DNA of 64,000 nucleotides. Source: Candidatus Bipolaricaulota bacterium. Its GTDB lineage: Bacteria > Patescibacteriota > Patescibacteriia > UBA11705 > DATKZF01. The notes under the pieces were generated by a model. It was not told the origin of the DNA, did no database searches, and was given only the letters and a program-made list of their open reading frames with translations. Both the position numbers and the translations under genes were made by a program. Position 1 is the stretch's first letter. Every line of letters begins with the position of its first letter. Shown here in pieces: positions 16,383-61,962 of the stretch. Where the stretch lies: assembly GCA_035528115.1 (NCBI GenBank), contig DATKZF010000003.1, positions 551,089-615,088 of the forward strand. The letters run 5' to 3'.

Positions 16383-16793
16383 TTATTGCTGCAGAGCCCC
16401 GATAATAAAGGAAACCAAGGCGTAACTGGTAAAGATGATTACCAAGCCGATGGTCGCGTAAAGCATGGCATTTTTGCCTTTTTTGATTTGCTCGGGATTG
16501 CCCCCGGAAATCAGCCAGAGCACGCCTCCGTAAATGAAGACGGCCAAAGCGGCCGTGCCCGCAATGCCGATCAATGACTTGATGATTCTGCCGACAACAA
16601 CATTGAGGTCAGTGGCTTCAGCGCCGAGCGGATTGGGCAATTCGAGCGAAGTATTGACAGGCGTTTCCGCCGGAGGCACTGTCTCCGCGGGCGGCACTGT
16701 TTCAATGGGAGGAGAGGTTTGCGCCAAGGCGAAAAGGGGAATGAATAAAAGCGGCATCAGACTTAGAATGATTTTTATTTTTGTTTTTGCCAT
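16383..16793 (-). CDS. VirB2/TrbC-like (T4SS-pilin-type) small pilin protein
   Basis: Signal peptide, a Pro-rich segment, and a two-helix hairpin IGIAGTAALAVFIYGGVLWLISGGNPEQIKKGKNAMLYATIGLVIIFTSYALVSFI. The same domain is found at the N-termini of 36344..38194 and 38241..45320. Confidence 0.6.
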   Translation of the reverse strand: MAKTKIKIILSLMPLLFIPLFALAQTSPPIETVPPAETVPPAETPVNTSLELPNPLGAEATDLNVVVGRIIKSLIGIAGTAALAVFIYGGVLWLISGGNPEQIKKGKNAMLYATIGLVIIFTSYALVSFIIGALQQ

Positions 16794-29201: not shown

Positions 29202-31166
29202 TCACATGAAATTTTTCAAATCAACAATGGCCGCCACGACGGTTTCCATGAATTTTTTCTTTTCCGCCATGGTGAATTTTTTCAACACAAAATCAGCCGT
29301 GTCTCCCATTTTCTTTTTATCTTCGCGGGCAATGCCGAGGCGCAAGCGATGAAAATCATTTGAGCCAAGAAAATCAATGATCGATTGAACTCCTTTTTGA
29401 CCGGCTGATGATCTGCTTTTTTGAATTTTGTATTCGCCCAGTAAAAAATCGACGTCGTCGTGAATCACCAGCAAGTTGTCCAAATCAATGTTGTAGTATT
29501 TGACCAATTTTTGAACGGCTTCGCCGGAATTGTTCATGAAAGTCTGCGGCTTGGCCAAAATGATTTTATTGCCGTCGAGCCTGCCCGCGGATAGCCAGCT
29601 TTGATTTTTTTTATCCAAAATCCATCCTCCAAAATCATATTGAGCTTCTTTCTTTAATTCGTCCAAAGCCGTAAAGCCCGCGTTGTGCCTCGTCGATTCA
29701 TATTCTTTGCCAGGATTGCCCAGGCCGACAATCAATTTGGTCATATTTTTACCGCTTAATTTTTTGTTTTTCGACAAAATCGCTTCTTTGGGCAACTGTC
29801 TGCTTCTTTTCGTTAAAACCAGTTTGACGCCGCTGCCGGACAAATTGAATTCTTCCCTCAGATTGTTGAGCAAATATCGGCGATAAGAAAAAATCAAATC
29901 TTGAGGTTTATCGATAATCAAAGCGAAAGTCGGCGGATTGATATCGGTTTGATTGATTTCATAAATGAAAGCCGGTTTGGTGATGTGATTTTTCGGAGGA
30001 GGGGATTGTTTTTTAATCATCTTGGACAAAAATTTATCCAGCTGTCTTTGCGGGATGATGATTTTGCGATCTTCGTAAAGTTGAATGATCATGTCGAGCA
30101 GCCGCTTCACCTTGAAGCCTGTTTTCGCGCTGGTGAAAACAATCGGCGCCCACTTTAATTGCGGCAAAAGCGACTGATAATATTCAATATATTTTTTTTG
30201 GGTGTCTTCATCCTTCTCGGGGATCAAATCCCATTTGTTCGCGACAATGATTAGGCTGGGATGCTCGTCCATGATGACCTGCGCCAAGTTTTTATCTTGA
30301 ACGGATAATTTTTTGCTGCAATCGGTGATGAAAATGGCCACGTCGATTTCACGAATGGTGTCCAAGCTTTGTTCAATGCCCAGTTTTTCCAACTTGCCTT
30401 TGATTTTACCTTTCTTGGTCACGCCCGCGGTATCGAAAAAGCGCAAGTTGTAATTTTTCCCGGAATCGGCCGAAAAATCAATGTCGATCATCTGCCGATC
30501 TCTGGTGGTGTGCGGACGTTCATTGACAATAACTCTTTCTTCGCCGGAAATTTGATTAAAGAGAGACGATTTGCCCACGTTCGGCTTGCCGATCAAGCCG
30601 ATGGAAATTTTTTCGATTTTTTCTTTCGTCTCTTTCACTGCGGGTTTTTTAAAATTCATCTTTGACAGCATCGCATCCAAAAGATCTCCGGTGCCGCGAC
30701 CGCTGGCCGCGGATATCGCGATCGGTTCTCCCAAACCCAGTTTGTAAAATTCGGATAAATTGACCTCGTCTCTGGCCGCGTCGGTTTTATTGGCGACCAG
30801 AACGATGTTTTTTTTATTTTTTTTCTTAAGCATGCCGGCGTATTTTTTGTCTCCGGGCAAAAGTCCTTCTTTGGCATTGACCATGAACAAAATCAAATCG
30901 GCTCGCTTGATGGCTTTTTCCGCTTGGATCAGCGATTGCTTTTCAATCAAGTCCGGATCCTCGACATCCAGACCGGCGATGTCCACCATGGTCATGACTT
31001 TGCCGCGCCAAACACAGTCGCCGTATTGGCGATCTCTGGTCGTGCCGGCGATATTGGAAACAATGGCGTTTTCGGTTTCGGTCAATTTGTTAAATAAAGA
31101 GGACTTTCCAACATTGACTCGGCCGACCAAAACGACGAGCGGATTTTGATGTTTTATCTTTGACAT
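29202..31166 (-). CDS. der-pth: In-frame fusion of GTPase Der/EngA (two G-domains plus KH) and peptidyl-tRNA hydrolase
   Basis: G1 motifs GRVNVGKSS and GKPNVGKSS, then the Pth N-terminal signature MTKLIVGLGNPG..Y..TRHNAGF. It is a single 666-codon ORF with no intervening stop. Confidence 0.75.
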   Translation of the reverse strand: MSKIKHQNPLVVLVGRVNVGKSSLFNKLTETENAIVSNIAGTTRDRQYGDCVWRGKVMTMVDIAGLDVEDPDLIEKQSLIQAEKAIKRADLILFMVNAKEGLLPGDKKYAGMLKKKNKKNIVLVANKTDAARDEVNLSEFYKLGLGEPIAISAASGRGTGDLLDAMLSKMNFKKPAVKETKEKIEKISIGLIGKPNVGKSSLFNQISGEERVIVNERPHTTRDRQMIDIDFSADSGKNYNLRFFDTAGVTKKGKIKGKLEKLGIEQSLDTIREIDVAIFITDCSKKLSVQDKNLAQVIMDEHPSLIIVANKWDLIPEKDEDTQKKYIEYYQSLLPQLKWAPIVFTSAKTGFKVKRLLDMIIQLYEDRKIIIPQRQLDKFLSKMIKKQSPPPKNHITKPAFIYEINQTDINPPTFALIIDKPQDLIFSYRRYLLNNLREEFNLSGSGVKLVLTKRSRQLPKEAILSKNKKLSGKNMTKLIVGLGNPGKEYESTRHNAGFTALDELKKEAQYDFGGWILDKKNQSWLSAGRLDGNKIILAKPQTFMNNSGEAVQKLVKYYNIDLDNLLVIHDDVDFLLGEYKIQKSRSSAGQKGVQSIIDFLGSNDFHRLRLGIAREDKKKMGDTADFVLKKFTMAEKKKFMETVVAAIVDLKNFM

Positions 31167-31167
31167 A

Positions 31168-31620
31168 TTACAAATTACGAATAATTGCATCGAATAGGAC
31201 AAGCTTGGTTTAGGTTTATCTGTTTGCTACGAATTGTTGCTTCTATGTAGCTTGCCTTTGCCTTGAAATTACGAATAATTGCATCGAATAGGACAATCTT
31301 GGCTTTGGTTTAGGTGACTTATTACAAATAATTACGAATGAGGCGGGAAAGTTGATGGCTACTTAAAAAGCTAATAAGCTACAACCTATTACAAATAGTT
31401 GCGTCTGGCAGGACAAGCTGTGTTTAGACCTTAACGTTTATTGCGAATAATTACAAATGGTTACGAATTACAATAGACTATTCAGCTTTCAGGTTATTTG
31501 TTACGAATTACAATATTCTCAGGCATAAAGTTATAAGTTAATGTACTTTGTAACAATACAAATAAAGAGCCATTTAGTGAATGTAATTCGTAACGACTCC
31601 CCGGCTTCTCTGTTTCATGC
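31168..31620 (+). repeat. AT-rich tandem repeat array (attacgaataattgcatcgaataggacaagcttgg... and gttacgaattacaat units)
   Basis: Multiple 45- to 110-bp direct repeats that share blocks with arrays at 35900, 54400, 57440 and 60560. Confidence 0.65.
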
Positions 31621-33167: not shown

Positions 33168-33770
33168 ATGAGCGGAGATCCTTTTATTACCAATAAATCA
33201 AAAGGCAAGATAATTTTTGAATTCATTTGGGATTTGGCCAAGGTGGCTTGCATTTCGCTGGCCATAATAATTCCGGTCAGATATTTTTTGATTCAGCCTT
33301 TTTACGTAAAGGGCGCTTCGATGGAGCCGAATTTGCACGATCATGAGTATTTGATCATCAATGAAATCGGCTATCGTCTGGATGAACCGCAGAGAGGAGA
33401 CGTGGTGGTTTTCAAATATCCTCAGGATCAGACTCAGTTTTTTATCAAACGCGTCATCGGTTTGTCCGGTGAAATCGTTGAATTGAAAGATGGCGTGGTT
33501 TACCTGTATTCGAAAGATGAAAACGGCGAAGATAAAAGATACGTGTTGAATGAAACTTTTTATCTCGATCCTCAAATCAAAACTTGGGGCGATCGAACTT
33601 TTCAAATCGGCGAGAACGAATTTTTCGTCATGGGAGACAATAGATCGCAAAGTCTGGACTCGCGATCATTCGGCCCCGTGGACAAGGACTTGATCGTCGG
33701 CAAAGTTTGGCTGAGAGGTTGGCCGTTCGATAAGTTTCAGCTCTTTAGCCAAATCGATTACGGATTTTAA
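33168..33770 (+). CDS. lepB: Signal peptidase I
   Basis: GASMEPNL (the catalytic Ser box), RVIGLSGE, and the GDNRSQSLDSR box. Confidence 0.8.
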   Translation: MSGDPFITNKSKGKIIFEFIWDLAKVACISLAIIIPVRYFLIQPFYVKGASMEPNLHDHEYLIINEIGYRLDEPQRGDVVVFKYPQDQTQFFIKRVIGLSGEIVELKDGVVYLYSKDENGEDKRYVLNETFYLDPQIKTWGDRTFQIGENEFFVMGDNRSQSLDSRSFGPVDKDLIVGKVWLRGWPFDKFQLFSQIDYGF

Positions 33771-35864: not shown

Positions 35865-35899
35865 AACTTTTATAAAAATCGGCTCGGATAGGGTCGGTT

Positions 35900-36230
35900 T
35901 TTTTATCTTCATTATGGAAATATTACGAATTACAATATTCTATTTAGCTTTCAGGTTATTTGTTACGAATTACAAGATTCTGTTTAGCTTCTATGTTATC
36001 TGTTACGAATTACAATATTCTATTTAGCTTCTATGTTATTTGTTACGTATTACAATCGACTATTAAGCTTTCAGGTTATCTGTTACTAATTACAATCATC
36101 TATAGCTATATGCCTTAGAATCTTGTACTTCGTAACGATCGTTTCTAAGCCAAATGGAACCTTGTACTTCGTAACAATATAAATAAAGAGCTATTTAGTG
36201 AATGTAATTTGTAACGACGCGCGGCGTTTG
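35900..36230 (+). repeat. AT-rich tandem repeat array (gttacgaattacaat units of ~45 bp)
   Basis: About six tandem units. It ends with the conserved block aataaagagctatttagtgaatgtaatttgtaacgac, which is also present at 31560-31600. Confidence 0.7.
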
Positions 36231-36343: not shown

Positions 36344-38194
36344 ATGAAAAAGAAAGAGCCAAGAGCAAAAATTTTATTAGGCGCTTTATTTTTGAGTATT
36401 GTTTTATTAACAATTGTTTTTTTGTTTCCATCGGGAACTTTTGCCCAGCAAGCGCAACTCGAAGCCGTAGGGCAGCAGGTCGGGTTTTTTGAGCAATCCT
36501 TACCCGTGGTTATCGGTAAAATTATCAGAATAGTCCTTTCAGTGGTCGGCGTTGTCTTGCTCGTTATTGTGATTTACGCCGGATTTTTATGGATGACGGC
36601 CGGAGGCAGTCCCGAACAAATAGAAAAGGCTAAAAAATGGCTGACCAACGGCGTGATCGGCTTGGTCATAATTTTATTTTCTTATTCAATAGTGACCTAC
36701 ATTATCAATCAACTGCTCGATGAAGGCGGCGTTTTCGGTTCGCCATCCACCTATTATGAAGGCTATGGACAAGGCGGCGGCGGCTGGGGAGGCGGCGCGC
36801 TGAGTGAAACAATCGAAGACCATTACCCCGGACGCGACGCGACCAATGTGCCGAGAAATACTTTTATAATGGTTAAGTTTTACGAACCGCTTAATCCTGA
36901 CAGCGTCAGGAGACAAGATACGTCGATGGATTGCGGCGATCAAGGTTACATTTGCGGTACGCTTAATTTCGACAACATAAAAATTTACAGAACCGAAGAC
37001 AGTGAGGAAGGTTCTTTTCCGACCGACTCCGCGACTTTGGTGCGCGGCGGCAAAGCGGCTTTGTCTCCCGATAAAAGAATATTTTTTTTCCAGCCCGATC
37101 CGGTGCTGGGTTCGGATACGGTGGACGTGAACTATTCGGTTTTTTTGACCAATGACATTCAAAAAGAGGATGGCTCCAAGATTTTCAGCAATAATAAAGA
37201 TTACGGTTGGAATTTCACCACGAGCACGGTCATTGATCTGACTCCTCCGCGAGTGGTCAGCGTATTGCCCAGTTCCAATAATCCGGAGTTTGAATTTTTC
37301 GCCAACAGTCTCATTCAAATCAATTTCAACGAACCCGTTTTGCCGCCCGCGGTTTTGAATACGGCCGGATCGGTGGAGGATAAAAGCAATTCCATTTATA
37401 TCGAATATGAAAAAGACGGCGCCGTAGGTTATGTCGAAGGCACATTCAATGTCGGTCTGAACCGATTTAAAACCATGGAATTTTTACCGGCGGCCGATTG
37501 CGAAAACTCCGGGCCCAATTCTTGCGGAGAAATCCCAAAATGCTTGCCCAAAGGCGCGACGATCAAGCCTTATATTCGAGCGGCCAGCGTCAACGCCGAA
37601 GGATTATCGTTCTTCCCGTTTGATGGTTTGGTGGACGCTGCCGGCAATTCGCTCGATGGCAATGCCGATGGGGTCGCGCAAGGACCGGCTGAAGATGATT
37701 ATTCTTGGCAATTTAAAACAGGCAGTATTTTGGATTTGCTGCCGCCGACGGTCAATTCGGTCTCGCCGCAAAACGCGGCCGAAGACCTGCCCGTTGACGT
37801 GGAACTTAAAGCGACGTTTTCCGAAAATCTCAGCGCTTCTTCGGTCAACAGCAGAACAGCTCTTTTGACGGGCGACGATTGGGCGCGCTGGTTCGTGGTT
37901 CATTTCGCGGACACGCCCGCGGGCGAGGACGGTCAGACGATCACCGACAGTTCGACGGTTCAAATCTCTCACGCCGATTTTGACAAAGCGCTGGAAGTGG
38001 AGGAGGGGCAAGAAGCCATTTCATTGAAATATTATCCGGTCTTAACGTCCGGAATAAAGGATTTACAGCAAAATTGTTATCAGCCGTGCAAAGATACTGG
38101 TTCTTGCGCCGGCGCCTTGCCCGGGCAGTCTTGTTGCCCTGATCCGGATTTCAATAATCAAAGACTTGTGCCCGGCTCGACTTGCCCGCAGTAA
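36344..38194 (+). CDS. Pilin-domain surface protein: N-terminal VirB2/TrbC-like (T4SS-pilin-type) domain plus Ig-like (SbsA/Big-type) domains and a Cys-rich C-terminus
   Basis: The N-terminus IIRIVLSVVGVVLLVIVIYAGFLWMTAGGSPEQIEKAKKWLTNGVIGLVIILFSYSIVTYIINQL is homologous to the 16383..16793 pilin. DLTPPRVVSVLPS and DLLPPTVNSVSPQ are Ig-like domain starts. Confidence 0.6.
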   Translation: MKKKEPRAKILLGALFLSIVLLTIVFLFPSGTFAQQAQLEAVGQQVGFFEQSLPVVIGKIIRIVLSVVGVVLLVIVIYAGFLWMTAGGSPEQIEKAKKWLTNGVIGLVIILFSYSIVTYIINQLLDEGGVFGSPSTYYEGYGQGGGGWGGGALSETIEDHYPGRDATNVPRNTFIMVKFYEPLNPDSVRRQDTSMDCGDQGYICGTLNFDNIKIYRTEDSEEGSFPTDSATLVRGGKAALSPDKRIFFFQPDPVLGSDTVDVNYSVFLTNDIQKEDGSKIFSNNKDYGWNFTTSTVIDLTPPRVVSVLPSSNNPEFEFFANSLIQINFNEPVLPPAVLNTAGSVEDKSNSIYIEYEKDGAVGYVEGTFNVGLNRFKTMEFLPAADCENSGPNSCGEIPKCLPKGATIKPYIRAASVNAEGLSFFPFDGLVDAAGNSLDGNADGVAQGPAEDDYSWQFKTGSILDLLPPTVNSVSPQNAAEDLPVDVELKATFSENLSASSVNSRTALLTGDDWARWFVVHFADTPAGEDGQTITDSSTVQISHADFDKALEVEEGQEAISLKYYPVLTSGIKDLQQNCYQPCKDTGSCAGALPGQSCCPDPDFNNQRLVPGSTCPQ

Positions 38195-38240
38195 TTATAA
38201 TTTCAAAAAAGTTTATCGATAGTGTAATTCGTCAAGGAAA

Positions 38241-41200
38241 ATGAAAACGTTTTTCAAAAACAAAAAAGTTCTTGTCATGCTGATCGCCTTTGTCGGGTTT
38301 TTGATTTGTTTTAATTTCGCGGCCGCGCAGTTTGACACGGGCTTGCAAACCGTGGGCGAGCAGGCCGGCATCGGAGCGACCACGGACGTCAGAGTGGCGA
38401 TCGCCAGAATCATCAGAACCGCTTTCGGTTTTCTGGGAGTGGTCGCGGTCGCCTTGGTCATTTATGGAGGATTTTTATGGATGACCGCCGGCGGAGACGC
38501 CGATAAAGTTACCAAAGCCAAAAAAGTGCTGGTCAACGCGTTTATAGGTTTGGCCATTATTCTTTTGGCTTTTTCGATCACCTCTTTTATCATCAACAGT
38601 TTGCAAGAAGCTGTTTTGGGTCAGCCGGGAGAATACGAATATGACGGCGGAGATGGAGGCGGCCCGAGCTCGTCGAGTTGCGGTTTTACGCCAAAGAGCG
38701 TTCAGCCGATCGGCGCGGTTTCTCTCAGAAATATTGTCGTGCGCGCGACCTTCAATGAAACCTTGGACGCAAATCTGGACGAACAAACATTGAAAAACAA
38801 TTTTGTCATTACCGATAAAGCGACCGGACAGACAGTCGACGGCGCGATCAGCGTCAATGGAAAAATTCTAGAATTCGAACCGAGCGCCGCGTGTCCCGAA
38901 CCCAATCAAGAAAGACACTGCTTTGACGCGGATACGATTTACAACGTGCAAATTCTGGCGGGCATAAAAAATAATCAGGGACAAGCTCGATCTTGCTGTC
39001 TGGGCAGCGTTTGTACCGCGGAATTTTCTTCCGGCAATTTAATCGATGTCGAGAATCCGACAATCAACATAATTTCGCCATACAACGGCCAGCAAATCAG
39101 CGAAAATATCATTTTCCCGCTTCAAGCTTTGACTCATGACGACAGTGGCGTGTCCATCGTGGAGTTTTTCGTTGACAAAAATTCGGCGGGAGCGGTTTCC
39201 CCGAGCGAAATTTCACCTAATTACAACGCCCAAGTCGATTGGGATAATTCGGGCTTTGAGCTTGGCTTGCACAGAATAGACGCCCGCGTTTTTGATCTGG
39301 ATTCCAATAAAACCGACGCGGCGTCCAAGCAAGTCAAAATTTTAGCAGAGCATTGTTTTAATTTGAGTCAAGATTTCGACGAAACGGGCATTGATTGCGG
39401 GGGCGCGGATTGCGGAGTTTGCGACGGTGAAGAATGCGACGGCGATCTGGATTGCGCCAGCGGCGTTTGCGTTGACAGTGTGTGCGTCAATTATCCGACC
39501 ATCACCGCTTTATCCAATGTTGAAGGAGCGATCGGCAACATGATTACGATCTGGGGTTATAATTTCGGCGAATATCAAAGCGGGGCCAGCAAAGTTGAAT
39601 TCACCGGTCCCAAACAAAGTTTGATCTCAGCCGAATTTTCCTGCGGCGCCGAGGGTTCCACTTGGTCCGAGCACAGCGTGGTGGTCAAGGTTCCGGAAGG
39701 TTCCGTTGACGGTCCGATAAAATTAACCAATGTTGACGGATACTGGGACAATACTGCAAACGATCGAGGCTTTTTGGGAGATTTTGTCATTAATCCCGAT
39801 CTTTTCTGGCCGGGCTTGTGCAGCGTCGTCAATCCGGACGGCAGGGCACTCGGCGAGTATGAAGATTCGGTGCTGGCTACCGGAGAAAACATGGGGCAGT
39901 CCGGCGAAGTCTTGTTCGGGAATATCAAAGCTCAGGTCACGGGCGCTTGGTCGTCTAATTCGATTTCAGGCATCAAGGTGCCCAATGTTTCCCCGAGCAA
40001 CATTTTGGTTAACGTGAAAACGGACGGTCAGCTCAGCAACCCCGTAAATTTTCAAGTGGTCTCTTCCAGCAAATTGCCGGAAATAATTTCGGTTAATCCC
40101 GAGACGGGCGGCATCGGCCAGTACACGACGATTTCGGGTAGAAATTTCGGAGATAATCCCAATTTATATCAAGTTTATTTCATCAATAAATCAAATGACA
40201 GCATCAGAGTGCCGGCCGACTTGAATTTTCCGCCCGAATGCGCGGAGAGCCTCTGGAGCGACACCGAAGTCTTGGTTAAAGTGCCGCAGACAAATTTGTT
40301 GGGCGAATATTCCGTGCAAATGATTGGTCAAGAAGCTCAAAGCAACAAAGTGAATTTTCTGATCTCGGACGCGTCGGCCAGTCCGGGAATTTGCGGGCTT
40401 GATCCGGACAACGGTCCGGTGGGCACATCGGTGAATGTTTACGGCGAAGGTTTTCGAAGCGAAGGAGTTTTAACTTTCAATGAAAATAAAAAGGCTCAAC
40501 AATTAAATTTGACCGCCAATTTGATCGCCACGGGAGTGCCCCCGGCCTCTGTTTCCGGTCCGGTTAATTTCGCGCTTGAAAACTTGATCAGCAACGGCAT
40601 GGTTTTTAATGTAGGCAGCTGCACGTCCGTGTCTTGCGACGCGGGCGATGAATGCTGCGTTGACGGAGTTTGCCGTTTGTCGGGCGCTTGCGAAACGAGT
40701 CTGATCGCGGCCAAGTGCGAGTATTCTTGGATGCTGAGCACGGACAAATTGCCGCTGGTGCCCAGAGTGCTGGAAACCATGTCTTGCGACGACGAGCACA
40801 ATCAGTCGCCGTCTCCGTGGAAAGATTCATCAGACGCTTGTGTCAACGCCTTGATCTCGGCTCAATTCAACATGCCCGTCAAAATGGACGCCATTGCCGA
40901 TAAATTAATTATCAAACGTTGCTCTTTGCAAAATGAAGTTTGCGATTTCAATAAGTGCGGACAGGAAGGCTCGAATTGCGTTTTTGAAATCCCGAGTTCG
41001 ATCGAAACGGCCGGTTCTTTGAGCGATCGATTCGCGGCCATTGTCGAGTCTTTGCCCGGAGGGGGAGATGAGAGCAATTTGATTTCCAATACTTGGCATC
41101 AAGTGACCATCAAAGGCGGGGTTAGCGGCATCAGAGGGGAAAACGACACACCCATGCCGGTCAATTACGTTTGGCAATTCAAGACCAAAGATGGTCCGTG

Positions 41201-44200
41201 CGAGCCGGTCAATGTGATCGTCGAACCGACCGCCGGCATAATTTCAGAATATTTGGGTCAATTGAATTATACGGTTTACGGCCAGGCCGAGAATTGCAAC
41301 ATCCTTAAGACGGGCTTTGATTGGAGCTGGGTGATTGATCGAAATCAAGATAAGGCTTCGATAGAAGACATCTCAAATGACAAATCCCAGGTTACCGGTT
41401 TGGCGGAGACCGAACCGGCCGATCCGGTCGTGGTCAGAGCGTCCACCGTGTCCGTTGATGGGGTGACTCAGCAAGACAGCGCTCCTTTGAAAATTGATTT
41501 TACTGATCCGAAAGTCAAGTCATTCGGTCCGAATTGCCAAGCGGCTTGCGTCAATACCGCTGTCTTCTCGACTTTCAATACTTACATGAACGCGGACTCC
41601 GTAAAAAAGAATTTTCAGATTTTCAAATGTCAGGGACAGCAATGCCTGGGCTTGACCGCAATTTCTCCGAATAATTTTACTTTTGAATATAATGATCTCG
41701 ACAAGACTCTCTGGGTTTTCGGACAAGCCGGCAAAACCCCATATTATTTTTCACCCAACAGCTATTATCGGGTGGTGATCGGCAGCCGATCAGAGAGTTT
41801 AAGCGGCGTCGAGCTTACCGGTTTGAATTTTGACCGCAATGACGACGGCAAAAATGACGCTTTTTCATGGACATTCAAAACAAAAAATGATAATACGCGT
41901 TGCGACTTGGAAACCGCTGTCGTGAATCCTGATTTTTATGAAAGCACCACACAGGGGGAGAAAGTCCAATACCTCGTTTCGGCCAAAGGCACGCCGGATG
42001 AGTGCAACCCCAGCGGCCAGACTTTGAATCCGTTCGAGTTCGATTGGGTTTGGTCGGTATTAAATCCTGGTTCTTGGGTTGTGGCCAGTATCACTCACGC
42101 CTTGCATTCCACCGATTTTCCGAGCGAGATCTGCTCGAGTAATTGTTTGAATCTGGGCAGTGATCCTTTTGCCGCGGTTTGCGGCAACGGCGCGCAGGAA
42201 TACGGCGAGGAATGCGATAATCAAGGAGTGTGCTCGGGAGATGAAGGCACCGATTGTTCTTCCAATGCGGATTGTTCCATTGTTGGAGGAGTCTGCGAGC
42301 CAAAAGACGGGGACGGTTGCAGCATTGATTGTTTGAACGAATCCGTGCCGGCTGTCAGCGACGGGGGATCTTGCGGTAATGGCGTCAGGGAAGGGACGAG
42401 AATAATCGATGGTATAACTTATCATGAAGAATGCGATCCGGCCGTTGATCCGGATATCTGCACCGCCGGTTGCCAATTGGCGGGTTCGGATGTTAGCGGT
42501 TTTGTCTGCGGCAACGGCCAAAAAGAAGCGGGTGAAGATTGCGATGACGGCAATGCTTCAAACGGCGATGGTTGCTCGAATATCTGCTTGTTTGAAGGAT
42601 CGAAATATTCCGTGGCCCAGATTATTGAAACTCCGCTTTGCGGCAATGCCGATGTTGAGCCGGGTGAAGACTGCGATGACGGTAATTTATTGTCCGGCGA
42701 CGGCTGCTCGCCCCGATGTTTGGCCGAAGGCAATGCCGAACAGTGCGGCAACGGCATTATCAATATCGGAGAAAACTGCGATGATGGAAATAATGATTCC
42801 GGCGACGGATGTTCGGCTGTTTGTTTGGCCGAAGGTTCCGACTGGGACATCGGATCTTATTGCGGAAACGGTTTTCCATTGGAAGTCGGCGAAACTTGCG
42901 AAGCCAAGCAAAGCTCGGATTTTCAAGGCTCGCCCAAGCAATTGGTGACCGTCGATGGCAATATCGATCCTTTTATAATGAGCGAGTCCGCGGAAATTAA
43001 AGCGATGACCGATAATTTCGCGGGCACGAGGGTATCCGGCAGCGGCGAGCTGGCTTTTACCAGAACGTTTTGCGAAAGCGTGCCCGTCGAATCTCCGTAT
43101 CCGATTGTCGGACCGACCGGCAGCGATGTCTGTCGCAATTCGGCCATTCAGATTAAATTGAATCAGCAAATCAAACAATCCAGTTTGAGCTCCGGCATCA
43201 GCGTCACCTATGATTGCGGTCAGACTTCATTGCTTTCCAAAATTAAAAAATTAGTCATTAAAAAAATAAAATATCGTTTGGAAATTTTAGCCGTGGCGAA
43301 AATAAAAGTGAAAAATTATTTTGTAAAACCGGCTAATGCTCAGCGAAAAGGCGAAGAAGAAACCTTTACACAGACGACTTTCGAAAGCGTGGTCCTGGAT
43401 TACCACCGGCCGGACAATTCAAATGTTTGGTTGTTGGTTCGGTTCGGATCCAGCTTGGTTTTGGCTACGGTTAATAAAGATAGCGTCAGTCCGGAGGTTT
43501 GGACCGTGGCTGAAAAGTACGCCGAAACCGGCTCGATTGTGCTGATCTCAGGGTTATTGTCCAATACCCCCGATAGTAAAGGCTATTTGCCCATGGCTGT
43601 CGATAATTTGCAAATTATTGAGGCCGAAGAGCCGCCGGCGCTGGGAAGCTCGGGCGTCTGTAAATTGTCGATTAAAAAAATCAGCGTCGTGTATAACGAA
43701 GAATTGAGAGAAAGCTCTATTACCATATTCCCTGATGGTTTGCTCGCGCCAAACACCAAATACACGGTGGACTTTTCCGGTTTGCAAGATCATTGCGGAG
43801 AATCGATCTCCGGCGATATTTTCGAATTCACCACCGGACCGGAGGCTAAGATATGTAAAATGGATTACGTGGAAATCACCCCGGATTATCAAGTGGTGAG
43901 CAAACGTTTTGGCGACGCGGAATACGCGCCCGTGGATTTTCAAGCCAATGCCGGAAGTTATGAGTTGGCTAATTCTTCGCTCAATCCGGTGCCAGGCGTT
44001 TACGCTTGGGATTGGACGTGGAATATGAATTCCGAGCCCGGAGGTTTGGATGTGTCGTTGTTTGATAAAGCCGGAGACGCGACCGGGGCGAATCCCGAGG
44101 ACGATGATCAAAAGAGCCTGCAGACCGGAGTGTCAAACGGCGAAGTCGAAGTGGATGCCATCGCCACCGTGACCGATAGCGAATTCGGCGATTTGGATAA

Positions 44201-45320
44201 AGAATTCGGAGGCGCGGCCAATGTCATCATTTATCTTTGCGAAAATATTTGGACCGGCACTTTGACGGACGGAGGTTTTTGGCGGGACAGCGATTTCGCT
44301 TTCAGGACTTTTTATTGTCGCGACGCGGGCAATCCCGGAGAAACGGATGATTTGCCCAATTTGAAAATAGTTCAGGCGCCGCCGCTCGATATTCCGACTG
44401 ACGCTTGGAGCCAAGACGATAGCGCCGTGCTTCGAGAGTATTTCATGCTCAGAGAAGATAATTTGACGCCGGACGCCATTGCCATGAGAATTTACACCAA
44501 TCCGGAAGGCGTATCTCCGGCCATTTGGTATGATTTGCATGTGCCCAATCCGGGCAGCACTCAGAATATCAGCATTGATTGCTCGACCGAATACAACAAT
44601 AATGCGAAAGCTTGCTATCCCGGCATTCAAGACGGTCGAACCGTCTATTTGTCAGCGGCCAATCAAATTACGGTTTATGTCAATTACGGTTGTTATTTTA
44701 TTCACGGAAAGCAGTATTGCCGTACTTTGGCTGTGGGAGACTCCATTTATCACAATATTTACGTGTTGTCATATAGCGAAAACGCCAATCCGGAAACTTT
44801 ATCCATTTACAGTCAGCTTTTGAATAATTTGAAATTCAATTATTTTGACAGCAGCATGGTCAAGGCCAGCCTGAAGAGAGACACGCAGAGAATGCATGAT
44901 ATTGTTTTCATTCGCAGTTTGATTAAAAATTATATTCAAAAAAACGGTCGTTTGCCTTTGCTCGATGAAACCGGAAGCTATGTGCCGGGCACTTATGTCA
45001 ATGGTCAATCAATCAGCGCTTGGCCGTCTTGGACCACCGTTTTAAGCAACCTCTTGGGTTCTCCCTTGCCGATAGATCCGCAGAACGGATTTAACGGCAC
45101 CTGTCCGGCCAATTACGATCAAGACACTTGTTTCAACGAACAGCTGGACGAAAAGTTTTATAACGAATACGATAAGAGTGTGGCGCAGGTTTACGATTAC
45201 AGTCTGGATCCGGATTCGCCGAGCGGCTATAATCTCTCGGTTAATTTTGAAACGGTAGTGCCCGAAGCCAAGAGATATCCGGCCATTTGTGTTAATTTGC
45301 AGGAGATTGATTGTCATTGA
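38241..45320 (+). CDS. Giant (2359 aa) surface protein: N-terminal VirB2/TrbC-like pilin domain, three IPT/TIG domains, about five Myxococcus-type cysteine-rich repeats, and a large uncharacterised C-terminal region
   Basis: The N-terminus IARIIRTAFGFLGVVAVALVIYGGFLWMTAGGDADKVTKAKKVLVNAFIGLAIILLAFSITSFIINSL is homologous to the other pilin-domain proteins. IPT domains include PTITALSNVEGAIGNMITIWGYNFG. The cysteine-rich repeats are of the form CGNG..E.GE.CDDGN...GDGCS..C. Confidence 0.7.
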   Translation: MKTFFKNKKVLVMLIAFVGFLICFNFAAAQFDTGLQTVGEQAGIGATTDVRVAIARIIRTAFGFLGVVAVALVIYGGFLWMTAGGDADKVTKAKKVLVNAFIGLAIILLAFSITSFIINSLQEAVLGQPGEYEYDGGDGGGPSSSSCGFTPKSVQPIGAVSLRNIVVRATFNETLDANLDEQTLKNNFVITDKATGQTVDGAISVNGKILEFEPSAACPEPNQERHCFDADTIYNVQILAGIKNNQGQARSCCLGSVCTAEFSSGNLIDVENPTINIISPYNGQQISENIIFPLQALTHDDSGVSIVEFFVDKNSAGAVSPSEISPNYNAQVDWDNSGFELGLHRIDARVFDLDSNKTDAASKQVKILAEHCFNLSQDFDETGIDCGGADCGVCDGEECDGDLDCASGVCVDSVCVNYPTITALSNVEGAIGNMITIWGYNFGEYQSGASKVEFTGPKQSLISAEFSCGAEGSTWSEHSVVVKVPEGSVDGPIKLTNVDGYWDNTANDRGFLGDFVINPDLFWPGLCSVVNPDGRALGEYEDSVLATGENMGQSGEVLFGNIKAQVTGAWSSNSISGIKVPNVSPSNILVNVKTDGQLSNPVNFQVVSSSKLPEIISVNPETGGIGQYTTISGRNFGDNPNLYQVYFINKSNDSIRVPADLNFPPECAESLWSDTEVLVKVPQTNLLGEYSVQMIGQEAQSNKVNFLISDASASPGICGLDPDNGPVGTSVNVYGEGFRSEGVLTFNENKKAQQLNLTANLIATGVPPASVSGPVNFALENLISNGMVFNVGSCTSVSCDAGDECCVDGVCRLSGACETSLIAAKCEYSWMLSTDKLPLVPRVLETMSCDDEHNQSPSPWKDSSDACVNALISAQFNMPVKMDAIADKLIIKRCSLQNEVCDFNKCGQEGSNCVFEIPSSIETAGSLSDRFAAIVESLPGGGDESNLISNTWHQVTIKGGVSGIRGENDTPMPVNYVWQFKTKDGPCEPVNVIVEPTAGIISEYLGQLNYTVYGQAENCNILKTGFDWSWVIDRNQDKASIEDISNDKSQVTGLAETEPADPVVVRASTVSVDGVTQQDSAPLKIDFTDPKVKSFGPNCQAACVNTAVFSTFNTYMNADSVKKNFQIFKCQGQQCLGLTAISPNNFTFEYNDLDKTLWVFGQAGKTPYYFSPNSYYRVVIGSRSESLSGVELTGLNFDRNDDGKNDAFSWTFKTKNDNTRCDLETAVVNPDFYESTTQGEKVQYLVSAKGTPDECNPSGQTLNPFEFDWVWSVLNPGSWVVASITHALHSTDFPSEICSSNCLNLGSDPFAAVCGNGAQEYGEECDNQGVCSGDEGTDCSSNADCSIVGGVCEPKDGDGCSIDCLNESVPAVSDGGSCGNGVREGTRIIDGITYHEECDPAVDPDICTAGCQLAGSDVSGFVCGNGQKEAGEDCDDGNASNGDGCSNICLFEGSKYSVAQIIETPLCGNADVEPGEDCDDGNLLSGDGCSPRCLAEGNAEQCGNGIINIGENCDDGNNDSGDGCSAVCLAEGSDWDIGSYCGNGFPLEVGETCEAKQSSDFQGSPKQLVTVDGNIDPFIMSESAEIKAMTDNFAGTRVSGSGELAFTRTFCESVPVESPYPIVGPTGSDVCRNSAIQIKLNQQIKQSSLSSGISVTYDCGQTSLLSKIKKLVIKKIKYRLEILAVAKIKVKNYFVKPANAQRKGEEETFTQTTFESVVLDYHRPDNSNVWLLVRFGSSLVLATVNKDSVSPEVWTVAEKYAETGSIVLISGLLSNTPDSKGYLPMAVDNLQIIEAEEPPALGSSGVCKLSIKKISVVYNEELRESSITIFPDGLLAPNTKYTVDFSGLQDHCGESISGDIFEFTTGPEAKICKMDYVEITPDYQVVSKRFGDAEYAPVDFQANAGSYELANSSLNPVPGVYAWDWTWNMNSEPGGLDVSLFDKAGDATGANPEDDDQKSLQTGVSNGEVEVDAIATVTDSEFGDLDKEFGGAANVIIYLCENIWTGTLTDGGFWRDSDFAFRTFYCRDAGNPGETDDLPNLKIVQAPPLDIPTDAWSQDDSAVLREYFMLREDNLTPDAIAMRIYTNPEGVSPAIWYDLHVPNPGSTQNISIDCSTEYNNNAKACYPGIQDGRTVYLSAANQITVYVNYGCYFIHGKQYCRTLAVGDSIYHNIYVLSYSENANPETLSIYSQLLNNLKFNYFDSSMVKASLKRDTQRMHDIVFIRSLIKNYIQKNGRLPLLDETGSYVPGTYVNGQSISAWPSWTTVLSNLLGSPLPIDPQNGFNGTCPANYDQDTCFNEQLDEKFYNEYDKSVAQVYDYSLDPDSPSGYNLSVNFETVVPEAKRYPAICVNLQEIDCH

Positions 45321-45412
45321 TAAATCATGGATCATGTATCATGTATCATGAAACATGAATCATAAAACATAAAGAACAGAAAGACAGAAAAACAAAGAAA
45401 CAAGGTCGCCGC

Positions 45413-45479
45413 TGTTGTCATCTCGACCGAAGTCGTCCGAAGCCGCGGCGAAGGATGACGAAGCGGAGAGATCTTTTCC
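45413..45479 (+). repeat. GC-rich element, A-C copy (lacks the B module)
   Basis: tgttgtcatctcgacc followed by gaagtcgtccgaagccgcggcgaaggatgacgaagcggagagatcttttcc. Confidence 0.65.
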
Positions 45480-45611
45480 TAAATCTTCGGAATAGACTTC
45501 TCCAGCCCCAATTTCCAGTTTCTAGTTTCCGGTTTCAAATATCAATTCCCCAGTTTCTGATTTCAGGTTTCCGATTACCCATTACTTTTTACTAATAAAA
45601 ATAAAAAATGT

Positions 45612-46277
45612 ATGCCAGAAGCATCAACTAACTCGCCAGCCGCTTCCGAGCAGCCAAAGGATATATTCGCGGAAATAGATCATTCGGCGCCGGTCCCGGC
45701 TTCAAATAGCATGTCTCCCGCGGCGCCGCCCGCCAAAATGGCCGCGCCCGGCAAAGCGAATGGGGGAAAAAAGATTTTAGTCATTTTTTTAATGATCATA
45801 TTTTTGGCGATTGTCATAGTTATCGGATATGTTGTTTATGACAGATATTTGGCTGTGCCGGAAACAGCCGTAACTCCCATAAAAAATCAGATACCGATAG
45901 CGCCTCCAGCGACCCCAACCCCGACGCCGACCCAACCGACGGTTGTGCCGGAGGCGGCCACTGTGGAAACGACAGTTGTTTTGCCGGTGGCCACGCCTTC
46001 CGCCACGGTTAATCAAATTGATACGGATAATGATCGGCTGAGCGATAGCGAAGAAAAGATAATAGGTACGGATCCCGAAGCCGTTGACAGCGACAAGGAC
46101 TCTTTGACGGATTATGAAGAGGTTAAAATATATAAGACGGATCCGCTGGATCCGGATTCGGATGATGACGGTTATAAAGACGGCGAGGAAGTTTCCGGCG
46201 GTTATGATCCTCTAAATCCCGCCGCCGGCGCCAAGTTGTCCGGATTGCCGTCGGTTTTACCTTCAGCCGTTGAATAA
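45612..46277 (+). CDS. Membrane-anchored protein with thrombospondin type-3-like Ca-binding repeats
   Basis: TM helix, a PT-rich linker, then DTDNDRLSDSEE, DSDKDSLTDYEE and DPDSDDDGYKDGEE repeats. Confidence 0.5.
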   Translation: MPEASTNSPAASEQPKDIFAEIDHSAPVPASNSMSPAAPPAKMAAPGKANGGKKILVIFLMIIFLAIVIVIGYVVYDRYLAVPETAVTPIKNQIPIAPPATPTPTPTQPTVVPEAATVETTVVLPVATPSATVNQIDTDNDRLSDSEEKIIGTDPEAVDSDKDSLTDYEEVKIYKTDPLDPDSDDDGYKDGEEVSGGYDPLNPAAGAKLSGLPSVLPSAVE

Positions 46278-46316: not shown

Positions 46317-47351
46317 ATGACACCAAACAATATTGATGAAGAAATTCACGTCATGCCCAAATCATCGGGGATTCACACCGTCAGTCCCTCCAGTCCGGCG
46401 GCCATGCCGCCGCGAGCGACCGCTCCGGTCTCATCCATGGACAAACCGACGTTGGAAGAGCCCAAAGGGTCAAAGGGTTGGACCAAGGCCGTATTGGCTA
46501 TTTTATTGGTGGCTCTGCTGGCCGCGTCCGGATATTTTCTTTATAGCGCTTATATGCCTAAAGAAGAAAATACCGCGACCAATACGCAAAATGAACAAGC
46601 GACGGAGCAACCAACCGCTGTTTTTCCCGCGACATCCGAGATTATTGAACCGGCAACCACTCCGGCCACGAAAGAGAGCGTAATTTCTCCGGCTACGAGC
46701 GAAGCGCTGCCGGAAATAATGATCGGCTCGAGGAATGATTTTGATTATGGAGCGACCGGCGACTTGAAGCTTGATATGGCTTATTCCCAAGACAGCGATG
46801 GCGACAAACTGACCGATCAAGAGGAAAAATTGTTCGGCACGGGGGTGCAGAACATTGATTCGGATTCGGACGGTTATTCCGATGGCGATGAAGTGGCTAA
46901 TTTATACAGTCCAAAGGACGCTGACGGGAAATTGCTCAAAGACACCAATTCGGTCAAAACGTACGTTAATGATAATTACGATTACACCGTTTTATATCCG
47001 GCGTCTTGGTTCGCCAAAGGCACTGACAAATCCGACTTGGAAGTTGTTTTTTCTTCCGATAACGGCGAGTTCGTGTCCGTTTGGGTTGAAGAAAACATCG
47101 GTCGATTGTCTCTTTCCGATTGGTACAAAAAACAAGCGCCCGAAGCGAATCTTGATGATTTGACCGAATTCGGTAATAAAAACGGGTTGTCCGGTTTGAT
47201 GAGCCCTGACGGTTTCACCGCGTATTTCGTCAAAGACGGATTCGTTTATATCGTTCATTACAATATCGGTTTGAAAGATCGGGCGGATTATCCGAACGTG
47301 TTCAAATTGATGATCGAAAGTTTTAATTTTATAGTTAGCGAAAGAGGATGA
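46317..47351 (+). CDS. Paralogous membrane-anchored TSP3-repeat protein with an extra C-terminal domain
   Basis: TM helix, then DSDGDKLTDQEE and DSDSDGYSDGDE repeats. Confidence 0.5.
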   Translation: MTPNNIDEEIHVMPKSSGIHTVSPSSPAAMPPRATAPVSSMDKPTLEEPKGSKGWTKAVLAILLVALLAASGYFLYSAYMPKEENTATNTQNEQATEQPTAVFPATSEIIEPATTPATKESVISPATSEALPEIMIGSRNDFDYGATGDLKLDMAYSQDSDGDKLTDQEEKLFGTGVQNIDSDSDGYSDGDEVANLYSPKDADGKLLKDTNSVKTYVNDNYDYTVLYPASWFAKGTDKSDLEVVFSSDNGEFVSVWVEENIGRLSLSDWYKKQAPEANLDDLTEFGNKNGLSGLMSPDGFTAYFVKDGFVYIVHYNIGLKDRADYPNVFKLMIESFNFIVSERG

Positions 47352-50863: not shown

Positions 50864-51021
50864 AGGAAAGAAATTTCTAAAGCGAGGCAAAGGCCTTAAA
50901 ACAAAAGTTACATTTTTTTTGTGAGGAAGACTAAAAAAGTGCCGGCTCGGGCGTGGGCGCTGAATTTAAGTCTTCTTTATTTCCCCCAAAAACCTTTAAC
51001 CCTATTATTATTCCCACTATT

Positions 51022-53135: not shown

Positions 53136-53282
53136 ATGGCTTCACAAAAGCTCGAGAGAACGAAATGTGAAATTTATACTCGCGTGGTCGGGTATCTTAG
53201 CCCGGTGCAACGTTGGAACAAAGGTAAAAAAGCGGAGTTTGCCGATAGAAAAATGTACGACGCGACATTGTCAAAATAGCGG
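53136..53282 (+). CDS. Stand-alone NrdD-type glycyl-radical tail peptide (48 aa)
   Basis: MASQKLERTKCEIYTRVVGYLSPVQRWNKGKKAEFADRKMYDATLSK contains the canonical NrdD C-terminal RV.GY...WN.GK..E...R motif. It is a separate frame starting 32 nt after the nrdD stop and is not in the supplied ORF track (below 60 aa). Confidence 0.5.
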
Positions 53283-61176: not shown

Positions 61177-61962
61177 ATGGATTTGAACTATCGGGAATTT
61201 GAAAATCCTTCGGAAAATATTGAAATTCCGGCGGAAGAATCTCATCGATTGGACAAGCAACAAAAAATATCGATCGCGGCCATTTCGCTGATCGGTGTTG
61301 GCGTGCTGGTTTTCGGTTTTTGGAGATTCAACGGCTCGATCGGCGTGCCTTTTCCGAAACTGGGCAATGAAAGCAACGCTCAGGTCGCGGCCACCGAAGG
61401 CTTGCGAGACGACACGCTCAAGAATTTGGATACCGACAATGACGGTTTAAACGATTATGACGAAAGTTACGTATATTTGACCAGTCCGTATTTGGAAGAT
61501 TCGGACAGCGACGGATACAGTGATCAAGCGGAAATACAAAACGGGTATGATCCCAATTGTCCGGCCGGCGAAAATTGTTTCAGCGACCTTGCGGGCGAAA
61601 GCGAACAGCAAACAGGGGAACCGGTAGCCGTTCAAAATACTCAGATTCCGGAAATAGACCCCATCGCTTTGCGCGCCCAACTTTTGTCTTTGGGGGTTAT
61701 AGATGAAGCGACTTTGAACGGCATTGACGATGAAACTTTGATTCAAGTTTACAAAGAACTCGGCGTAACCGAAGGGACGACCGGCAATATATTTGACGCT
61801 GCCGAAGCTGAACTTTCAAATCCCGCGGCCGTATCGATTGAAGAGATTAAAGAAATGTTGCGAGAAGGCGGGCTGGAAGAAGATATTATCAATTCAGTGG
61901 ATGACTCCACTTTGATGGATTTGTACAATGAGGCTTTGAAGGCGGTTGAAGAAGGACAGTAA
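61177..61962 (+). CDS. Membrane-anchored TSP3-repeat protein (third paralog)
   Basis: TM helix, DTDNDGLNDYDE and DSDSDGYSDQAE repeats, and an acidic C-terminus. Confidence 0.5.
   Translation: MDLNYREFENPSENIEIPAEESHRLDKQQKISIAAISLIGVGVLVFGFWRFNGSIGVPFPKLGNESNAQVAATEGLRDDTLKNLDTDNDGLNDYDESYVYLTSPYLEDSDSDGYSDQAEIQNGYDPNCPAGENCFSDLAGESEQQTGEPVAVQNTQIPEIDPIALRAQLLSLGVIDEATLNGIDDETLIQVYKELGVTEGTTGNIFDAAEAELSNPAAVSIEEIKEMLREGGLEEDIINSVDDSTLMDLYNEALKAVEEGQ

Follow-up and report, generated by a model that had tools for sequence, protein, structure and literature searches.

Why would a hairpin of the kind found in conjugative pilins stand at the N-terminus of a protein of 2359 amino acids (aa)? The question is raised by a stretch of 64,000 nucleotides (nt) from contig DATKZF010000003.1 (positions 551,089 to 615,088), here called the window, whose host is an ultrasmall bacterium of the Patescibacteria. 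Three of its open reading frames (ORFs) are of concern, which we name p136 (136 aa), p616 (616 aa) and the giant (2359 aa); their coordinates and those of their parts are collected in Table 1. On the best reading of the evidence, the window encodes one free VirB2/TrbC-like pilin (p136) and a two-gene pair of modular VirB2-like pilins (p616 and the giant). With somewhat more confidence than doubt we regard this pair as modular VirB2-type pilins that display giant adhesin-like fibres on the hairpin. Because C-terminal ectodomains of approximately 480 and 2,230 residues are attached, p616 and the giant are best described as fusions containing a pilin module, and not as canonical pilins.

An earlier note on this DNA had claimed that the three ORFs have one N-terminal module in common, and the three were found with the module where it had placed them; the p616 and giant genes lie on the plus strand and the p136 gene on the minus strand, which the note had left unstated. 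The module opens with a Sec signal peptide, which is followed by two hydrophobic helices that a short basic loop connects. The N-termini can be aligned over approximately 80–135 residues by composition-corrected BLASTP, with 42.0% identity between p136 and p616 (E 1.1e-16), 42.1% between p136 and the giant (E 5.5e-22), and 40.7% over 135 aa between p616 and the giant (E 3.6e-28). Hydropathy gives exactly three hydrophobic segments in each module, namely the signal peptide and two transmembrane segments (TM1 and TM2). The predicted signal peptides end in ALA↓Q, TFA↓Q and AAA↓Q across the three proteins, with AAA↓QF in the giant (arrows mark the predicted cleavage), and the loop between TM1 and TM2 is net-basic in each, holding 3–4 lysine and arginine against 1–2 aspartate and glutamate residues (for example GGSPEQIEKAKK). 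The motifs quoted earlier (IIR/IIK, IYGGFLWMTAGG, PEQI.KAKK and IGL.II) are all present. The two-helix hairpin with a short charged turn is likewise borne out, by hydropathy for all three proteins and by an AlphaFold2 (AF2) model of p136, in which helices 63–94 and 100–135 are joined by a five-residue loop and the core has a predicted local distance difference test score (pLDDT) above 90. That the mature product is essentially this hairpin holds for p136 alone, not for p616 or the giant.

A hidden Markov model (HMM) of the three modules was compared with the six-frame translation of the window and returned only these three ORFs (E 1e-56 to 1e-63); there was no fourth copy in the window, the next best match having E>1. 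Because exactly three ORFs are recovered, the likeness is attributable neither to chance nor to generic hydrophobicity. We give next to no credence to the idea of an artefact, in which the likeness would be merely compositional, as between hydrophobic signal-anchors, or the giant ORF would be mis-assembled or mis-called. Transmembrane segments can indeed yield spurious similarity, and fold searches were non-specific here, but composition-based E-values of 1e-16 to 4e-28, the unique recovery of the three ORFs and the lower scores of reversed and shuffled controls all speak against it, as do the presence of the identical 2359-aa protein on 8 independently assembled contigs (the longest reported is 763 kb) and full-length homologs in hundreds of genomes.

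To which family does the hairpin belong? Two Pfam models bear on the matter, PF18895 (T4SS_pilin, T4SS standing for type IV secretion system) with a curated cutoff of 26.6 bits and PF04956 (TrbC/VirB2) with one of 27.9 bits. All three proteins score above the former (p136 43.0, p616 44.3, giant 28.2 bits); the latter is passed by p616 (28.3 bits), missed by p136 (24.8 bits) and gives no match on the giant at the reporting threshold of E<=0.1. Among 48 homologs of p136 of 75–208 aa, PF18895 is present in all and PF04956 in 28. The module families of the small pilins, the giant and p616 align with each other by HHalign at 99.9–100% probability (99.9% for the giant against the small pilins), and the fused hairpins keep the invariant positions of the free pilins, i.e., Y-G-G, W, G-G, the K-rich loop and I-G-L. 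HHalign against 8 annotated VirB2/TrbC plasmid genes of Agrobacterium type gave scores of 25–27 (E 3e-4 to 9e-4) in register, compared with 13–16 for reversed and at most 22.9 for shuffled controls. The class III signal motif of type IV pilins (G↓F/M-T/S-L-x-E) is absent from all three proteins, their N-termini have no match to N_methyl or T2SSG domains, and there is no sign of sortase-type anchoring, that is, no LPXTG and no hydrophobic segment past residue 125. The model NF045849 (Mbov_0395/MMCAP2_0565), which describes the pilin-like protein of an integrative and conjugative element (ICE) of Mycoplasma, is alike in that it describes a pilin-like protein of two helices that serves conjugal transfer in bacteria that are wall-less or monoderm; the window proteins scored 30.0, 29.6 and 23.2 bits (E 3e-7 to 4e-5) and thus are not members, since the curated cutoff is 40 bits, and they also lack an ICE context.

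The window proteins resemble the classical VirB2/TrbC pilins (Agrobacterium VirB2, RP4 TrbC) in their predicted cleavable leader, two hydrophobic helices and short basic loop, in the mature size of p136 (approximately 70–110 aa), in HMM scores at or near the PF04956 cutoff and in the in-register alignment. They are unlike them in being remote in sequence, in having a monoderm host and no adjacent virB operon, and in that two of the three carry C-terminal ectodomains of 480 and 2,230 residues. Classical pilins stop a few residues past TM2 and are often cyclised or trimmed.

The earlier note saw the hairpin of the large proteins as an anchor for extracellular modules. Such modules are attached to it, yet the hairpin appears to be more than an anchor, because it is the best-conserved part of both fusions. 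Measured as identity to the window protein across 119 homologs of the giant, the hairpin stands at 55% (TM1 60%, loop 51%, TM2 50%), against 33% for the ectodomain, 30% for the linker and 29% for the signal peptide; the corresponding values in the p616 family are 54%, 36%, 28% and 22%. The signal peptides serve here as a control, being as hydrophobic as the hairpins and only 22–29% identical. Since one would not expect a generic anchor to be under stronger constraint than the rest of a surface protein of 2,000–4,000 residues, the hairpin would, on this conservation pattern, have to make specific contacts. Its strong conservation and the retained free-pilin positions make it most likely that the fused hairpin engages the partner of the free pilins.

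What the hairpin carries was described earlier as Ig-like, IPT/TIG and Cys-rich modules, and these were recovered as Big_5, Big_7, three TIG stretches and DUF4215/TIGR02232. The ectodomain of the giant has approximately 2,230 residues with 83 Cys, and that of p616 approximately 480. From the predicted leader cleavage, the basic loop and the positive-inside rule it follows that the loop should be cytoplasmic and both hairpin ends outside, and therefore the entire C-terminal extension of p616 and of the giant would be extracellular. A low-complexity linker rich in Gly, Ser and Pro, with Gly as the commonest residue (14–18%), comes directly after TM2 in both fusions. Its position in both families, together with its low identity of 28–30%, invites another model, in which the hairpin would be a membrane-tethered export or maturation intermediate and proteolysis in the linker would free a secreted or wall-associated ectodomain fibre. 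We consider this improbable: a discarded hairpin would leave its high conservation unexplained, there is no recognisable cleavage or sorting motif (no LPXTG), and no dedicated protease is found in the cassette, even if classical TrbC and VirB2 are C-terminally processed and 34 of 60 loci have a gene for a LytR-Cps2A-Psr ligase upstream (see below).

The conserved C-terminal block of the giant is modeled by AF2 as beta-rich domains, after which come a helix of 31 residues and a small alpha/beta region that contains Cys, with a pLDDT of 81 and a predicted template modeling score of 0.78 for the last ~500 residues; Foldseek on the block gave generic Ig-like matches only. Its end (44820–45317, aa 2194–2359) carries the motif K..RD..R..D...Y....G.YP...G.Y...S.WPSW...LG..LP.DP.N, which we take, as an unconfirmed hint, to be like the start of pseudopilin or type IV pilin heads. 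Searches did not confirm such a head: Foldseek returned Ig-like matches only and a profile of the sub-block had no PDB match; PF08334 (T2SS protein G) was touched by 1 of 14 homologs of the block (E=0.0036). In most homologs (P0006–P0120; 3,000–4,000 aa) the block is internal with 800–1,000 more residues beyond, and the window giant and its closest relatives (P0002–P0005) represent a shortened form. Short direct repeats (CATGTATCATG / AAACATGAATCAT) occur in the 291-nt spacer 3' of the giant (45321–45611), along with several CCAGTTTC/CGGTTTC units.

The suggestion that fusions of this size are unusual did not survive comparison, since the giant and p616 each have hundreds of homologs in Patescibacteria bearing the N-terminal module. 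At E<=1e-5 among 8,000 candidates scored, the giant has 341 homologs; architecture was read from the best 120, which are mostly 2,000–4,000 aa long and nearly all combine PF18895 with Big_5, TIG and DUF4215, sometimes with VWA or LamG. For p616 there are 292 homologs, the best 120 of which are nearly all 534–760 aa with the same architecture (outliers 864 and 988 aa), and the module is N-terminal in 120 of 120 best-listed members of each family. Names given to p616 homologs by NCBI and JGI include ‘pilin’ and ‘Type IV secretion system pilin/Bacterial Ig-like domain’, and one member is named by NCBI ‘MMCAP2_0565 family pilin-like conjugal transfer protein’. When 1.84 billion cluster representatives were searched exhaustively with a profile, the module was present at E<=1e-3 in 63,527 proteins, among them single-module N-terminal fusions up to 4,428 aa and proteins with many hairpins in tandem. 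Hairpin-ectodomain fusions are common and conserved in Patescibacteria, not exceptional. Their named hosts are Falkowbacteria, Uhrbacteria, Komeilibacteria, Buchananbacteria, Kuenenbacteria and Parcubacteria, which presumably fall mostly in class ABY1 of GTDB. The NCBI label of the identical giant, ‘Candidatus Bipolaricaulota bacterium’, looks wrong, and so do the labels of dozens of cassette-bearing metagenome-assembled genomes (‘uncultured Gammaproteobacteria bacterium’, and in one case each ‘Candidatus Kapaibacterium’ and ‘Bacteroidales’), because gene content and all other named relatives point to Patescibacteria.

The two fusion genes also form a conserved pair on the chromosome. The giant gene begins 46 nt past the p616 gene, and a terminator-like hairpin after yqeY is the probable upstream boundary of the transcription unit, as judged from a consensus match; a promoter scan 5' of 36344 gave nothing convincing. 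An exact protein look-up provided five loci, the window's own contig (L001) and four relatives (L003–L006), among which some giants are only 28–34% identical. All five have the same upstream order, namely type I signal peptidase, hisS, an 80-aa ORF, yqeY, a pilin-Big_5 gene of ~600 aa and the giant, followed downstream by one or two TSP3 membrane proteins, a ~340-aa protein without Pfam match, ybeY, dagK and ftsA, with ftsZ next after ftsA in four of the five. A TSP3-type protein occupies the position of the 221-aa gene in all four relatives; the counterpart of the 344-aa protein, whose gene overlaps ybeY by 4 nt in the window, measures 333–348 aa in L003–L005, and a 454-aa fn3 protein is found there in L006. 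A scan of one genome per species with the p616-family profile found at least 575 loci, of which 80 were kept for context counts. In these the giant lies directly downstream of the p616-type gene in 61 of 70 evaluable loci, and exactly two module-bearing ORFs are present in 72 of 80; complete giants span 1,023–3,460 aa, and a further 25 extend past the end of the locus. Upstream lie type I signal peptidase (in 56/60), HisRS (57/60) and YqeY (49/60), the first being the enzyme class expected to cleave the three leaders, so that a functional link may be supposed. The surroundings are those of an ordinary chromosome, with hisS, a class II tRNA synthetase of asp/asn/lys type, topA, dprA, parAB and scpAB as well as a der-pth fusion, lytR, two relA/spoT homologs, ftsA, ftsZ and nrdD in the window.

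Several results weigh against a pilin role for the pair. None of VirB4, VirB6, VirD4, VirB11 or a type IV pilus ATPase is encoded in the 64-kb window; a VirB4-like or type IV coupling protein (T4CP)-like gene is near the cassette in 0 of 80 loci with flanks of up to 10 kb; and conversely the module is near VirB4 in 0 of 80 VirB4-centred metagenomic loci, within the fetched flanks and with positive controls detected. The likeness to Agrobacterium-type VirB2 is weak (HHalign probability 24–37%). Module profiles of 3 and of 48 sequences found no pilin among PDB chains, only noise at E>0.1, and fold searches with the hairpin gave no specific match to solved conjugative pilins, a search that is non-discriminating for so small a fold. 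The name of PF18895 is, we presume, itself inferred and not taken from an experimentally characterised member. Finally, a homopolymeric VirB2-type pilus could not sterically accommodate an appendage of 2,230 residues on each of its subunits, and therefore at most a sparse or terminal incorporation of the fusions is conceivable. The VirB2/TrbC identity put forward in the earlier note thus stands at the HMM level, by PF18895 in all three proteins and PF04956 in p616, and is borne out neither by a specific fold match nor by linkage to T4SS genes.

The same counts lend themselves to a T4SS-independent anchor, in which the hairpin was co-opted, perhaps as a self-oligomerising element with both termini outside, for envelope-fibre or S-layer-like proteins, with neither pilus nor T4SS involved and with a fixed surface complex formed together with the downstream TSP3 proteins. 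The housekeeping surroundings (ybeY, dagK, ftsA, ftsZ) and vertical conservation across distant lineages fit what is expected of a core envelope component, and the two membrane proteins are co-conserved downstream. We nevertheless hold this explanation to be possible and not likely, because conservation would not peak in a plain anchor (hairpin ~55%, signal peptide 22–29%), because the invariant positions of free pilins are kept in the fused hairpins, and because the genome also has free pilins of this family, which in some relatives lie near T4SS ATPases. In two of three contexts (L007, L009), relatives of the small pilin are located 3–5 kb from a VirD4-like protein; in one of the three (L007), the distance to a VirB4-like ATPase is ~9 kb. 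As a separate observation, the C-terminal ATPase part of the patescibacterial VirB4 of L007, used as a query, has relatives in >570 metagenomic stretches; the best 80 (L010–L089) are 82–95% identical over 434 residues, and the window's source contig is not among these best 80.

If p616 and the giant are modular VirB2-type pilins, the following sequence of events may be proposed. The proteins would be exported by Sec and then cleaved by signal peptidase I, as their leaders suggest. The hairpin would insert into the membrane so that its basic loop faces the cytoplasm while its two ends point outward, in keeping with the positive-inside rule and the AF2 hairpin, and the C-terminal extension would be shown on the cell surface as a long fibre. 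The fused hairpin may then pack laterally with small pilins such as p136, or dock on a T4SS-like machine for assembly whose genes lie elsewhere, with the fusions as sparse minor, tip or base subunits or membrane-proximal nucleators. The adhesin-like fibres so mounted would serve contact with a host or substrate, and the two downstream single-pass TSP3 proteins, judging by synteny, are probably part of the same surface complex.

A broader version of this proposal, which we entertain only tentatively, is that the hairpin is a general display handle in Patescibacteria, such that giant adhesins, the 600-aa class and even poly-pilins would use it to co-assemble with small pilins, either within a T4SS-derived filament of a monoderm cell or at its tip or base. 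The poly-pilins are a further form of the module: P0124, P0121, P0126 and P0130 are proteins of 820–1,775 aa with 6–17 tandem hairpin modules, spaced mostly by ~80–130 aa and uninterrupted by stop codons, and they may be concatenated pilin arrays.

How do these fusions relate to systems already known? The T4SS cluster of Southlakia epibionticum includes an essential pilin array (PMC10633639). When 3,035 genomes were surveyed by means of PF04956 and PF18895, VirB2-like pilins turned up in 1,948 VirB4-containing assemblies, in 1,135 of which a pilin lies near virB4, with arrays of 2–11 pilins (PMC12102498), and the average identity between array members is 25% (PMC12102498, PMC10633639). A 2025 review regards the VirB2-like systems of Patescibacteria as unique among monoderms (PMC12857230), and among protein clusters specific to freshwater, PF18895 is reported to dominate the Pfam domains (bioRxiv 10.1101/2025.04.23.650224). 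The window proteins are like these arrays in having the same PF18895/PF04956 domains, in being chromosomal and in occurring as multiple divergent paralogs per genome (PMC12102498, PMC10633639). The two differ in that the published pilins are small and often lie within 20 genes of virB4, whereas the window fusions occupy a hisS-yqeY / ybeY-dagK-ftsA setting without a T4SS gene nearby. By term matching, the available literature on Patescibacteria VirB2-like pilins contains neither a large-ectodomain fusion nor this cassette. Thus small Patescibacteria VirB2-like pilins are already published, and giant modular VirB2-type fusions in a core cassette appear to be new within that term-matched literature.

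Two other surface systems from the Candidate Phyla Radiation (CPR) deserve comparison, the giant proteins of Vampirococcus lugosii (PMC8080830) and the Pam pili (bioRxiv 10.64898/2026.03.03.709456), both of which are CPR-specific, largely Ig-like and proposed to act in host contact. The description of the former goes no further than a membrane location, with WD40, PKD and other domains (PMC8080830), and the latter assemble by donor-strand exchange with membrane-anchored chaperones (bioRxiv 10.64898/2026.03.03.709456). As judged by term search, neither paper refers to VirB2, T4SS or type IV secretion (PMC8080830; bioRxiv 10.64898/2026.03.03.709456). The Pam pilus was ruled out as the relevant system, as it relies on donor-strand exchange without a VirB2 element (bioRxiv 10.64898/2026.03.03.709456).

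A closer analogy in concept is offered by the modular type IV pilins. In Streptococcus sanguinis, PilB and PilC are said to be pilins of this kind, with a vWA or lectin module grafted on the pilin. The concept matches the one proposed for the window fusions: an N-terminal polymerisable pilin reportedly bears a C-terminal adhesive graft and, built in as a minor subunit, makes the filament adhesive. The fold of those pilins is unrelated, and so is their machinery, with its class III signal peptide, PilD and the PilB ATPase; the modules grafted in the window proteins are up to ten times larger.

The conserved pair joins a pilin hairpin to adhesin-like fibres of 500–4,000 residues and so supplies concrete candidates for an attachment apparatus in lineages of Falkowbacteria, Uhrbacteria and Komeilibacteria type. 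We know of no cultured representatives of these lineages. Host contact of most Patescibacteria, and the function of their chromosomal relaxase-less T4SS and essential VirB2-like pilins, are largely unexplained in the available literature (PMC10633639, PMC12102498, PMC11665869), with Pam pili as a recent exception in Saccharimonadia and Microgenomatia. Display on a pilus, if true, would extend the modular-pilin idea from type IV pili to T4SS-type pilins. Should the hairpin be a general display handle, no modular VirB2-type pilins would precede these, which would stand to the T4SS as modular type IV pilins do to type IV pili, and a direct molecular route would lead from the essential patescibacterial T4SS/pilin system to host attachment. 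A T4SS-independent anchor would mean instead that a pilin fold was co-opted as a conserved membrane-assembly domain, and that counts of PF18895 in metagenomes are not to be taken as counts of T4SS pili.

Table 1. Features of the three module-bearing genes and of the cassette, in window positions
Feature	Position	Strand	Support
p136, small free VirB2-like pilin	16383..16793	-	PF18895 43 bits, PF04956 24.8 bits
p136 signal peptide, aa 1-24	16722-16793	-	predicted
p136 Pro-rich extracellular N-terminus	aa 25-60	-	predicted
p136 hairpin module, aa 61-136	16386-16613	-	PF18895, AF2 helices
Type I signal peptidase (S26), four genes upstream of cassette	33168..33770	+	PF10502 146 bits
Terminator-like hairpin after yqeY, 12-bp stem and T-run	35874..35902	+	consensus match only
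p616, candidate modular pilin	36344..38194	+	PF18895 44.3, PF04956 28.3, Big_5 63 bits
p616 signal peptide, aa 1-34	36344-36445	+	predicted
p616 hairpin, aa 50-125	36491-36718	+	
p616 Gly-rich linker, aa 126-160	36719-36823	+	
p616 ectodomain, three Big_5 Ig-like stretches and Cys-rich C-terminus	36824-38191	+	
Giant, candidate modular pilin, 2359 aa	38241..45320	+	PF18895, Big_5, Big_7, TIG, DUF4215, TIGR02232 80 bits
Giant Sec signal peptide, aa 1-29, AAA↓QF	38241..38327	+	hydropathy, -3/-1 Ala rule; cleavage presumed
Giant VirB2-like hairpin, aa 46-123: TM1, basic loop GGDADKVTKAKK, TM2	38376..38609	+	PF18895 at aa 54-117
Giant Gly/Ser-rich linker (aa 124-165) and Ig-like array	38610..43160	+	Pfam stretches
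Giant Pfam stretches: Big_5, Big_7, TIG (three), Cys-rich acidic repeats	aa 166-248, 273-346, 613-705, 1451-1640		
Giant lineage-variable segment, aa 1650-1850	43188..43790	+	in ~20-50 of 119 homologs; 24% identity
Giant conserved block without Pfam match, aa 1851-2300	43791..45140	+	aligned in >100 of 119 homologs
221-aa single-pass membrane protein (TM aa 49-83), Pro/Thr linker, acidic TSP3 repeats	45612..46277	+	PF18884 53 bits
344-aa single-pass membrane protein (TM aa 54-80), TSP3-like acidic repeats, C-terminal globular domain	46317..47351	+	

Some further features of the window are recorded here. A third single-pass protein with acidic TSP3 repeats (261 aa, TM aa 28–51) is encoded at 61177–61962 (+), 14 kb downstream of the cassette. 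Rfam detects three tRNAs only, far from the pilin loci. Immediately upstream of p136, on the same strand and separated from it by a 2-nt gap, lie tandem RelA/SpoT homologs (HD_4, RelA_SpoT, TGS; 16796–18250 and 18258–19862, -). The anaerobic ribonucleotide reductase NrdD is split into a 716-aa ORF (50953–53103, +) and a 47-aa ORF (53136–53279, +; MASQKLERTKCEIYTRVVGYLSPVQRWNKGKKAEFADRKMYDATLSK) with a glycyl-radical-type RVVGY motif, and a small NRDD-matching gene likewise stands by itself on the window's own contig (L001) and in the relative L003. A 666-aa ORF at 29202–31202 (-) fuses Der/EngA (two MMR_HSR1 and a KH_dom-like domain) to peptidyl-tRNA hydrolase (aa 490–660), and in the relatives L003 and L004 the two are adjacent genes.

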